Sequence record: PV763039.1
DNA from: Escherichia phage WPEC6
DNA: 64,000 bases
Strand: one strand, 5' to 3'
Under the pieces are notes generated by a model. The model made no database searches and was not told the DNA's origin. It saw only the letters and a list, made by a program, of their open reading frames with translations. Made by a program: the position numbers and the translations under genes. Shown here piece by piece: positions 22,972 through 23,066 of the stretch (position 1 is the stretch's first letter; the number at the start of each line of letters is the position of its first letter).

Positions 22972-22992
22972 ATAAACTCTCCTCTTTATTTA

Positions 22993-23063
22993 CCCGACGC
23001 GCCCCTGTTGGGCGGAAAGGGTTGTACGCAAAATTTTTAGCTCCAATCGTCGGGTGTCCCGAC
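22993..23063 (-). promoter_or_regulatory. GC-rich structured leader with alternative hairpins
   Basis: GTCGGG-aca-CCCGAC hairpin (23049-23063), CGCCC/GGGCG hairpin (about 23000-23014) and a further GTCGGG copy (22993-22998) able to pair alternatively. Confidence 0.35.
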
Positions 23064-23066
23064 TCC

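Follow-up and report, generated by a model that had tools for sequence, protein, structure and literature searches.

The DNA analysed here (the window) is a stretch of 64,000 nt from Escherichia phage WPEC6 (PV763039.1) and was assigned to a genome of Phapecoctavirus, a genus of the Stephanstirmvirinae consisting of phAPEC8-like myoviruses of about 150 kb. Phages of the phAPEC8-like group are used in phage-therapy work. Within the window, a long minus-strand array of small genes, all of unknown function, contains a spacer of 95 nt (22972-23066), located between a gene for a four-cysteine protein and a gene for a putative secreted protein (Table 1). The 2-kb stretch around this spacer is 100% identical to Escherichia phages WPEC1, WPEC2 and WPEC4, and about 60 Phapecoctavirus genomes match it at 95-99% identity. 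In the coordinates of phage vB_EcoM_ASO2A, the spacer is the sole gap of at least 35 nt in 4.6 kb of abutting same-strand genes, and this run of genes lies 3' of the promoter-like sequence TGTATAAT at approximately ASO2A position 7040. A literature search for transcriptome or end-mapping data on Phapecoctavirus found none.

Table 1. Features of the spacer and of the two genes that border it, listed in the direction of transcription.
Feature	Position	Strand	Basis or remark
Upstream gene, 68 aa, four-cysteine (zinc-ribbon-like), function unknown	23067..23273	-	ORF list; phrog_24734
UAA stop of upstream gene	23069-23067	-	3 nt 5' of hairpin 1
Orphan AAGGAG resembling a Shine-Dalgarno sequence; overlaps the stop codon and reaches into the first base of hairpin 1	23063..23068	-	sequence
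Hairpin 1, GUCGGG-ACA-CCCGAC, 6 bp, 3-nt loop, -8.2 kcal/mol	23049..23063	-	folding
AU-rich linker CUAAAAAUUUUG between hairpins 1 and 2	23029..23040	-	sequence
Hairpin 2, CGCCC-AACAG-GGGCG, 5 bp, -8.1 kcal/mol	23000..23014	-	folding
Third arm CGUCGGGU, including the second GUCGGG	22992..22999	-	exact complement of ACCCGACG (23054-23047)
Second GUCGGG, one C after hairpin 2	22998-22993	-	sequence
Shine-Dalgarno GAGGAG, 7 nt 5' of the AUG	22979..22984	-	sequence
AUG of the secreted-protein gene	22971	-	sequence
Secreted-protein ORFan, 132 aa, Sec-type signal peptide	22573..22971	-	ORF list; signal judged by eye

On the minus-strand transcript, the two hairpins, the second GUCGGG, the ribosome-binding site and the gene that follows all lie where the sequence-only reading had placed them. 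The stretch leading from hairpin 1 to hairpin 2 is AU-rich (GAUUGGAGCUAAAAAUUUUGCGUACAACCCUUUC), and the second GUCGGG sits 9 nt 5' of the GAGGAG ribosome-binding site, with UAAAUAAA in between. Hairpin 2 can be extended through an ACCC:GGGU pairing over a 4x4 internal loop, which brings its folding energy to -14.1 kcal/mol. The AAGGAG at the 5' edge of the spacer has no start codon at a usable distance, the nearest being a UUG located 16 nt further on. The region formed by the spacer and the secreted-protein gene is closed at its 3' end by a stop/Shine-Dalgarno junction, TAAGGUGG (TAAGGNG, 22576-22570), which resembles the AAGGAG of the 5' edge. From this resemblance, the orphan AAGGAG may be the relic of an ancestral, tightly coupled stop/Shine-Dalgarno gene junction into which the spacer and its gene were received together.

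The product of the downstream gene starts with MKKIIVGLLLLIASLGTANA and, after an A-x-A site, continues with SQ; the n-h-c layout typical of a Sec signal was recognised here by eye, in agreement with the classical Sec signal peptide of the earlier reading. The protein is an ORFan: a single cluster at 90% identity represents it among 5.8 billion proteins, and it has no homologue outside the clade. It corresponds to phrog_26124, a PHROG family of unknown function, and Pfam gave nothing above threshold. The single-sequence AlphaFold2 model is all-beta and of low confidence (pLDDT 61), and no fold in the PDB matched it at E <= 0.001. The label "RNA ligase" attached to this ORFan in record PQ571307 was found to be without support. 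The gene runs in the direction of its neighbours, with tight coupling to the one that follows (stop, 10 nt, ATG).

From a compositional perspective, the spacer stands out, as had been noticed from the letters: its GC content is 51.6%, vs 39.1% for the window and 34-36% for the flanking genes, and it ranks in the top 0.75% of 95-nt windows, with the caveat that at 100-nt resolution the GC peak is only 0.48, a value equalled elsewhere in the window. When the spacer was dinucleotide-shuffled 5000 times, 28 of the shuffles (0.56%) gave two or more perfect GC-rich hairpins. As a whole, the 116-nt region has a folding energy that is unremarkable given its composition (z = -1.68), with 13 of 200 shuffles folding equally well. 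A complement of at least 8 nt, such as that between ACCCGACG and CGUCGGGU, was found in 0.14% of the shuffles, a test chosen post hoc, after the match had been seen. Three copies of GTCGGG lie within 71 bp, and the 64-kb window holds seven matches in total vs a chance expectation of eight. No second copy of the spacer's 15-mers or motifs was found in the 64-kb window. The spacer was therefore ruled out as a repeated element, its 15-mers being unique in the window and GTCGGG occurring at chance frequency.

The picture of a structured GC-rich leader was borne out by secondary-structure prediction. Each hairpin folds on its own with about -8 kcal/mol, and all pairs of both hairpins have probabilities of at least 0.96 (at least 0.98 for those of hairpin 2), rising to at least 0.97 in a 155-nt context. 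The mutually exclusive pairings proposed by the sequence-only reading are also real, and longer than it described. In fact, ACCCGACG, which comprises the last loop base and the 3' arm of hairpin 1 together with the next G, can form by exact complementarity an alternative long-range helix of 8 bp with CGUCGGGU. At equilibrium this helix has a probability of 0.001-0.006, and the best structure containing it lies +4.7 kcal/mol above the optimum. Moreover, hairpin 1 is local, has a loop of 3 nt and is transcribed first, so that kinetics should favour it too. When the first 12 nt after the stop codon are blocked, the alternative helix reaches a probability of 0.99 in the window type. The Shine-Dalgarno sequence is unpaired with a probability of 0.47-0.82 in the free fold (two sequence contexts) and of 0.41-0.79 under a block of arm 1, the 5' arm of hairpin 1. 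Likewise, opening the ribosome-binding site (-15 to +12) costs 4.7-4.9 kcal/mol in the free state vs 4.0-4.3 kcal/mol with arm 1 blocked, a gap of only 0.5-0.7 kcal/mol between the two folds. Since this gap is small and the Shine-Dalgarno sequence is mostly unpaired in both folds, the refolding provides no translational gate.

The spacer was found by blastn in 63 phage records, in 42 of which it is identical, the rest showing 95.8-99% identity. Sixteen distinct variants were fetched and aligned with the window, giving 17 variants and 11 distinct sequences, all at least 95.8% identical. Hairpin 1 shows no variation (17/17), and, like the linker, it lies within a run of 81 nt (23028-23108) that is the longest without any variation in the 1.5-kb alignment; the linker itself (23029-23040) is unchanged in the aligned relatives. 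Hairpin 2 is more variable: a C>U change retains a U-G pair in Schickermooser and nieznany, a G>U change disrupts the closing pair in SF1-1, and 10 variants carry an additional G in the loop or in the G-run. As for the third arm, the first G of GUCGGG is replaced by A (AUCGGG) in eight nepoznato-type phages, and GUCGGG has become GUCGAG in tuntematon and EP57, in both cases without compensation. The alternative helix is thus broken at two columns in 4 of the 11 distinct sequences, with arm 2 unchanged. Under the same 12-nt block, its probability falls to 0.04 in the nepoznato type (eight phages) and to 0.57 in the tuntematon/EP57 type (two).

Covariance among related phages had been proposed as a check on the paired arms. 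Pair counts over the 17 near-identical variants revealed no covariation and no compensatory change in either structure; since these relatives are at least 95.8% identical, the missing covariation is by itself weak evidence. The uncompensated substitutions in the third arm count, instead, against a selected helix between the second and third arms. Substitutions affect 10 of 95 columns in the spacer vs 48 of 399 in the downstream gene, which is the same per-site rate and therefore indicates no detectable extra constraint on the spacer as a whole. Furthermore, stem columns are substituted about as often (2/22) as non-stem columns (8/73).

A search for known RNA classes and signals gave negative results. 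The Rfam scan suggested earlier returned no match to the spacer even at E <= 10 (2-kb scan), and none at the gathering score in the whole window. ARAGORN found no tRNA or tmRNA across the window, so a tRNA or tmRNA fragment was ruled out as the identity of the spacer. A UUG-initiated ORF is present in the spacer without a properly spaced Shine-Dalgarno sequence, even if the AAGGAG 5' of the UUG could be brought closer by hairpin 1; its length is 18 codons in part of the phages and 49 codons where the extra G is present, a frameshift seen in 10 of the 17 variants, and a leader peptide was rejected because the frame is not conserved across the +G indel. The spacer also includes a C-rich stretch, CAACCCUUUCCGCCCAACA, of only about 20 nt; a Rho utilisation site needs a longer stretch.

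The scan for sigma-70-like promoters found none in the spacer, the best manual match being TTGGAG-14 nt-TACAAC. What such a promoter looks like next to a hairpin in these phages is shown by the early region of ASO2A, which holds a repeated leader unit made of a -35 TTGACA, 16-17 nt, a -10 resembling TAAGAT and about 10 nt ending in (A/G)TA, followed by a GC hairpin that starts with GGGCGG and has no U-tract, then by ACAA..AGAGAG..AAATC and finally by the ATG. With a profile of these promoter-hairpin units, four plus-strand copies were identified in the window (28990-30262). [quoted passage not shown] The leader units of ASO2A and of the window indicate that GC hairpins placed just 5' of a ribosome-binding site are routine in the early transcripts of this phage; a kinship between the spacer and these units may be drawn by analogy only. 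As a separate observation, GGGTAAATAA in the spacer agrees at 7 of 10 positions with the rV5-type late-promoter motif TggTAaAAtA (PMC3606486), and it is variable in relatives (A>G, T>C).

With regard to transcription termination, the scan identified no terminator in 22972-23066, and a U-tract is absent after hairpin 1, hairpin 2, the extended hairpin 2 and the long-range helix. The tail following hairpin 1 is GAUUGGAGCUAAAAA / GAUUGGAG and that following hairpin 2 is CGUCGGGUAAAUAAAG, neither of which is a U-tract. Genuine U-tract terminators do exist between same-strand genes of this phage, for example AACCCGCTTCGGCGGGTTTTTT. In the record of vB_EcoM_ASO2A (MZ726793), hairpin 2 is labelled as a predicted rho-independent terminator, and the label derives from TransTermHP and WebGeSTer predictions (PMC10612097). 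This annotation is to be corrected, as hairpin 2 is without the defining U-tract. The spacer was therefore not placed in the class of intrinsic terminators, of which it has the stable GC stems and not the U-tract. For the same reason, a transcription attenuator would have no output element here, neither fold being a GC hairpin followed by a U-tract.

The distribution of the spacer is linked to that of the ORFan. By blastn the spacer, and by tblastn the ORFan, turned up in the same 63 records, all of them from the phAPEC8-like group. For the upstream zinc-ribbon gene the count is 69 phage records, six of which have neither spacer nor ORFan. These six divergent records are of the phiWec179/186/188/190 type or belong to "Pseudomonas" phage PsgM04F; the phiWec phages have been proposed as a separate genus (PMC12695924). 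Three of the six (phiWec179, phiWec188 and PsgM04F) were read directly, and in these, as well as in one IMG/VR contig, a hydrophobic mini-ORF of about 20 codons, MIEIIIFAALIIILGFLMYE, replaces the spacer and the ORFan and lies ahead of the next gene's homologue (window 22116-22571). In PsgM04F and in a metagenome contig, an unrelated extra gene follows the zinc-ribbon gene directly. The junction 3' of the ORFan is variable also within the phAPEC8 group, with an extra gene in nepoznato and an extra spacer in Schickermooser. This variation of the junctions across relatives indicates that the locus is an indel hotspot of the Phapecoctavirus early region and that spacer and ORFan behave as one cassette. 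Judging from these sequence comparisons, the spacer is best read as forming the 5' edge of a cassette specific to this lineage, made up of the spacer and the secreted ORFan, in the early gene array.

The donor of the cassette was searched for in phages, E. coli genomes, IMG/VR and metagenomes and was not found. A host origin was discarded after no match was obtained in 5,426 complete E. coli genomes. In IMG/VR, a flank-anchored pattern gave 0 matches and a protein-based search none. The 31 IMG/VR matches to GTCGGGACACCCGAC share only 15-19 nt, lie on unrelated contigs and were attributed to chance. Intermediate relatives were looked for through the zinc-ribbon protein in metagenomes and IMG/VR, which returned one near-identical phage and two sister-group contigs without the element.

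The explanation that we prefer, and to which we assign about an even chance of being correct, is that the spacer carries two static, independent and constitutively folded intercistronic stem-loops at the edge of the cassette, which leave the ribosome-binding site open and act as passive punctuation of the mRNA. As judged from the architecture alone, this punctuation probably concerns mRNA stability or processing. Hairpin 1, beginning 3 nt past the stop codon, would block 3' exonucleases and protect the upstream segment; the AU-rich linker CUAAAAAUUUUG would offer a single-stranded cleavage site for an RNase E-type endonuclease; and hairpin 2 would serve as a 5'-proximal stabiliser of the secreted-protein cistron, as in the promoter-proximal leaders of this phage. 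Some reduction of transcriptional read-through, or pausing, may be a further effect of the hairpins, in the manner of the stem-loops of T4-type PeSL (promoter-early stem-loop) cassettes. The third arm CGUCGGGU would be part of the extended hairpin 2, or a by-product without a selected role. The passive punctuation leaves the 8-nt complementarity of the third arm (0.14% of shuffles) unaccounted for.

Intercistronic stem-loops are known to set segmental mRNA stability, as in the case of the REP hairpins of E. coli malEFG, of pap processing and of the 5' stem-loop of the ompA leader. Like those systems, the spacer has stable hairpins flanking an AU-rich single-stranded segment between cistrons, with one hairpin just 3' of the stop, the other just 5' of the next ribosome-binding site, and the latter not sequestered. 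It differs from them in that its hairpins are short (5-6 bp) and unrelated in sequence to REP, as no E. coli genome matched.

The complementarity of the third arm is what speaks for a switch, the function that the sequence-only reading had in mind when it compared the spacer to an attenuator or RNA switch. The mutually exclusive pairings of that proposal stand; its function does not, as no Rfam family, terminator, gate at the ribosome-binding site or compensatory change accompanies them. As in the attenuators of the trp, his and pyrBI type and in riboswitches, three arms allow a 1:2 or a 2:3 pairing, and the upstream ORF ends beside arm 1, so that a ribosome could select the fold. It is improbable, nevertheless, that the 5' arm of hairpin 1 is masked by a ribosome during termination at the upstream UAA, so that ACCCGACG becomes free for CGUCGGGU beside the Shine-Dalgarno sequence, and the prospect that ORFan expression is linked in this way to translation of the zinc-ribbon gene is correspondingly slight. 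In the three-arm form of the idea, which has an equally small chance, the 8-bp helix would fold 44 nt (the AU linker and hairpin 2) compactly, bringing the termination site beside the ORFan Shine-Dalgarno sequence. The helix probability of 0.99 under the block and the position of hairpin 1 so close to the stop fit such a coupling as well as the exact 8-nt match, whose shuffle test, however, was selected post hoc. Against it stand the nearly equal cost of opening the ribosome-binding site, the lack of a terminator in either fold and of an Rfam family, and the two uncompensated third-arm substitutions, which cut the blocked-state probability so markedly. Unlike such attenuators and riboswitches, the spacer has no 3:4 terminator with a U-tract, no conserved short leader peptide with regulatory codons and no aptamer-like conserved domain; its third arm is not conserved and the accessibility of the ribosome-binding site is unchanged. 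If true, ribosome-triggered refolding would represent a compact, structure-mediated translational coupling across a 95-nt gap in a mobile ORFan cassette. An unlikely reading, although less so than the switch, is that of a leaky factor-independent terminator or pause site that partitions the long early operon, as the ASO2A label on hairpin 2 would have it. Two programs predict a terminator there, and the PeSL stem-loop of RB49/phi1, of the form G(n)-loop-C(n), lowered lacZ read-through roughly as far as rrnB T1 does (PMC2839356). However, stems of only 5-6 bp, the absence of a U-tract behind either hairpin, the negative consensus scan and the clear U-tracts of the phage's true terminators all weigh on the other side.

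The main rival is a neutral passenger, in which the hairpins are a leftover that arrived with the ORFan cassette or was made at a recombination junction, without a selected function; we consider it possible, if clearly less probable than passive punctuation. It accords well with the fact that the spacer occurs only with the ORFan, in one narrow clade, with a GC content above that of the flanking genes, as expected of foreign DNA, with a substitution density equal to that of coding DNA, with the lack of covariation and with an orphan Shine-Dalgarno sequence that resembles a junction scar. On the other hand, the donor was not found in any of the collections searched, hairpin 1 and the linker fall within the longest local invariant run, and chance alone is unlikely to produce a pair of perfect hairpins along with an 8-nt third arm. 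Phage genomes also tend to shed useless spacer in tightly packed operons, which speaks against a passenger on general grounds. Hardly credible is an element acting at the DNA level, with the GTCGGG half-sites (two inverted, one direct) forming a protein operator or a recombination or homing site. The clustering of the three half-sites and their position exactly at the indel boundary would suit it, but there is no nearby promoter to regulate, the palindrome arms are only 3 bp apart, the third half-site is mutated in two lineages, the flanking ORFs include no recognisable endonuclease, integrase or regulator gene, and no second copy exists anywhere in the genome.

Taken as static stem-loops at the edge of an accessory cassette, the spacer can be compared with elements described in other phages. 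Stem-loops of a comparable type border ORFan indels in T4-type phages, where one of them lowered the expression of a downstream reporter (Arbiol et al. 2010, PMC2839356; Comeau et al. 2014, PMC4122927). The spacer shares with these PeSLs a GC-rich stem-loop between the upstream stop and the downstream Shine-Dalgarno sequence, without an obvious terminator tail, as well as the setting in a plastic early region of small ORFans, at a site where an ORFan is present or absent between close relatives. PeSLs, in contrast, contain a strong sigma-70 promoter; they are conserved units of about 100 bp that occur repeatedly and recombine with one another. The spacer occurs once in the window and once in each phage record, and the phage that carries it is a member of the Stephanstirmvirinae rather than a T4-like phage. 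Since the embedded promoter and the repeated conserved unit are both absent, the spacer is not a member of the PeSL family. When the spacer is viewed alongside the nearby repeats of the promoter-hairpin unit, there is a hint that modular shuffling of the PeSL kind may not be limited to T4-like phages. The element itself would be an intercistronic stem-loop spacer of an ordinary kind and carries little weight as a regulatory discovery. A further likeness is with the morons of lambdoid phages, units consisting of promoter, gene and terminator (PMC2839356): here too a lone accessory gene, for a secreted protein, lies between conserved genes and is flanked by non-coding sequence of atypical GC content. 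The cassette differs from a moron in having no promoter of its own and no downstream terminator, in sharing the orientation of its neighbours with tight coupling to the next gene, and in residing in a phage that is virulent and not temperate.

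The early region of the window carries repeated leader units (see the table), in which a promoter is followed by a hairpin. The promoter part consists of TTGACA, a spacing of 16-17 nt, a TAAGAT-like -10 box and about 10 nt leading to a terminal (A/G)TA, while the 3' part comprises a GC hairpin (GGGCGG...) devoid of a U-tract, then a purine-rich SD sequence and an ATG; every unit in this region precedes a small ORF. The units of the window and of the early region of the annotated relative ASO2A strongly resemble the promoter-early stem-loop (PeSL) cassettes, which, to our knowledge, have been described only in T4-like phages. 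A literature search returned no paper naming PeSLs jointly with Phapecoctavirus or rV5-like phages. In ASO2A, a stretch of about 1.5 kb without annotated CDS (MZ726793, 5152-6659) extends from the promoter-hairpin region to the long early gene array, and has no counterpart in the window.

Coordinates of the leader units, the mini-ORF and the ORF following the secreted-protein gene
Feature	Location	Coordinates	Strand	Remark
Leader unit copies	window, early region	28990-29049, 29354-29437, 29727-29806, 30204-30262	+	
Leader units in gaps	ASO2A (L051, MZ726793)	at 234, 888, 1277, 1757, 2120, 3489, 4663		
Mini-ORF	phiWec179/188 (L002, L004)	2224-2286 in both		
Mini-ORF	PsgM04F (L003)	2477-2539		
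Mini-ORF	IMG/VR contig (L054)	~1723-1785		
ORF 22116-22571	window	22116-22571	-	mechanical call, GTG start, 151 aa

An abrupt head-to-head junction is found at about 28875-28890 of the window, where gene 28513-28881 (corresponding to ASO2A 6672-7299) on the minus-strand side meets, on the plus-strand side, sequence matching the interior of ASO2A gene 002 (ASO2A 437-1818). Either a genuine rearrangement at a GGCGG-type unit or an artefact of assembly could account for this arrangement. None of the phage records crosses this junction, including those of WPEC1/2/4, which are 100% identical elsewhere; each of these records gives 14-15 partial matches to the junction query, and their length is 155-161 kb, compared with about 150 kb in relatives.

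In the sister-group phages phiWec179/188 and PsgM04F and in an IMG/VR contig, the site occupied in the phAPEC8 group by the spacer and the secreted ORFan harbors an unannotated, hydrophobic mini-ORF of 20 codons, encoding the peptide MIEIIIFAALIIILGFLMYE or near variants. Nothing else separates the zinc-ribbon gene from the gene after it in phiWec179/188 and the IMG/VR contig. The peptide is conserved at all four loci, and the mini-ORF is probably a genuine gene for a small membrane protein.

As regards ORF 22116-22571, the relatives and the PHROG profile match, which begins at residue 4, indicate that translation truly starts at the ATG at 22562, 10 nt past the stop of the secreted-protein gene, giving a predicted product of 148 aa (MTKVRHY...).

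Finally, GenBank records PQ571307 / PQ571289 (L037, 796-1194) give the secreted ORFan the label "RNA ligase", and in PQ571307 a neighbouring gene is named "protein ea8.5". Since Pfam, PHROGs and a fold search gave no support for the "RNA ligase" label, this is likely an annotation error. Several Phapecoctavirus records of near-identical genomes list implausible hosts, namely Campylobacter, Acinetobacter, Pseudomonas and Klebsiella.
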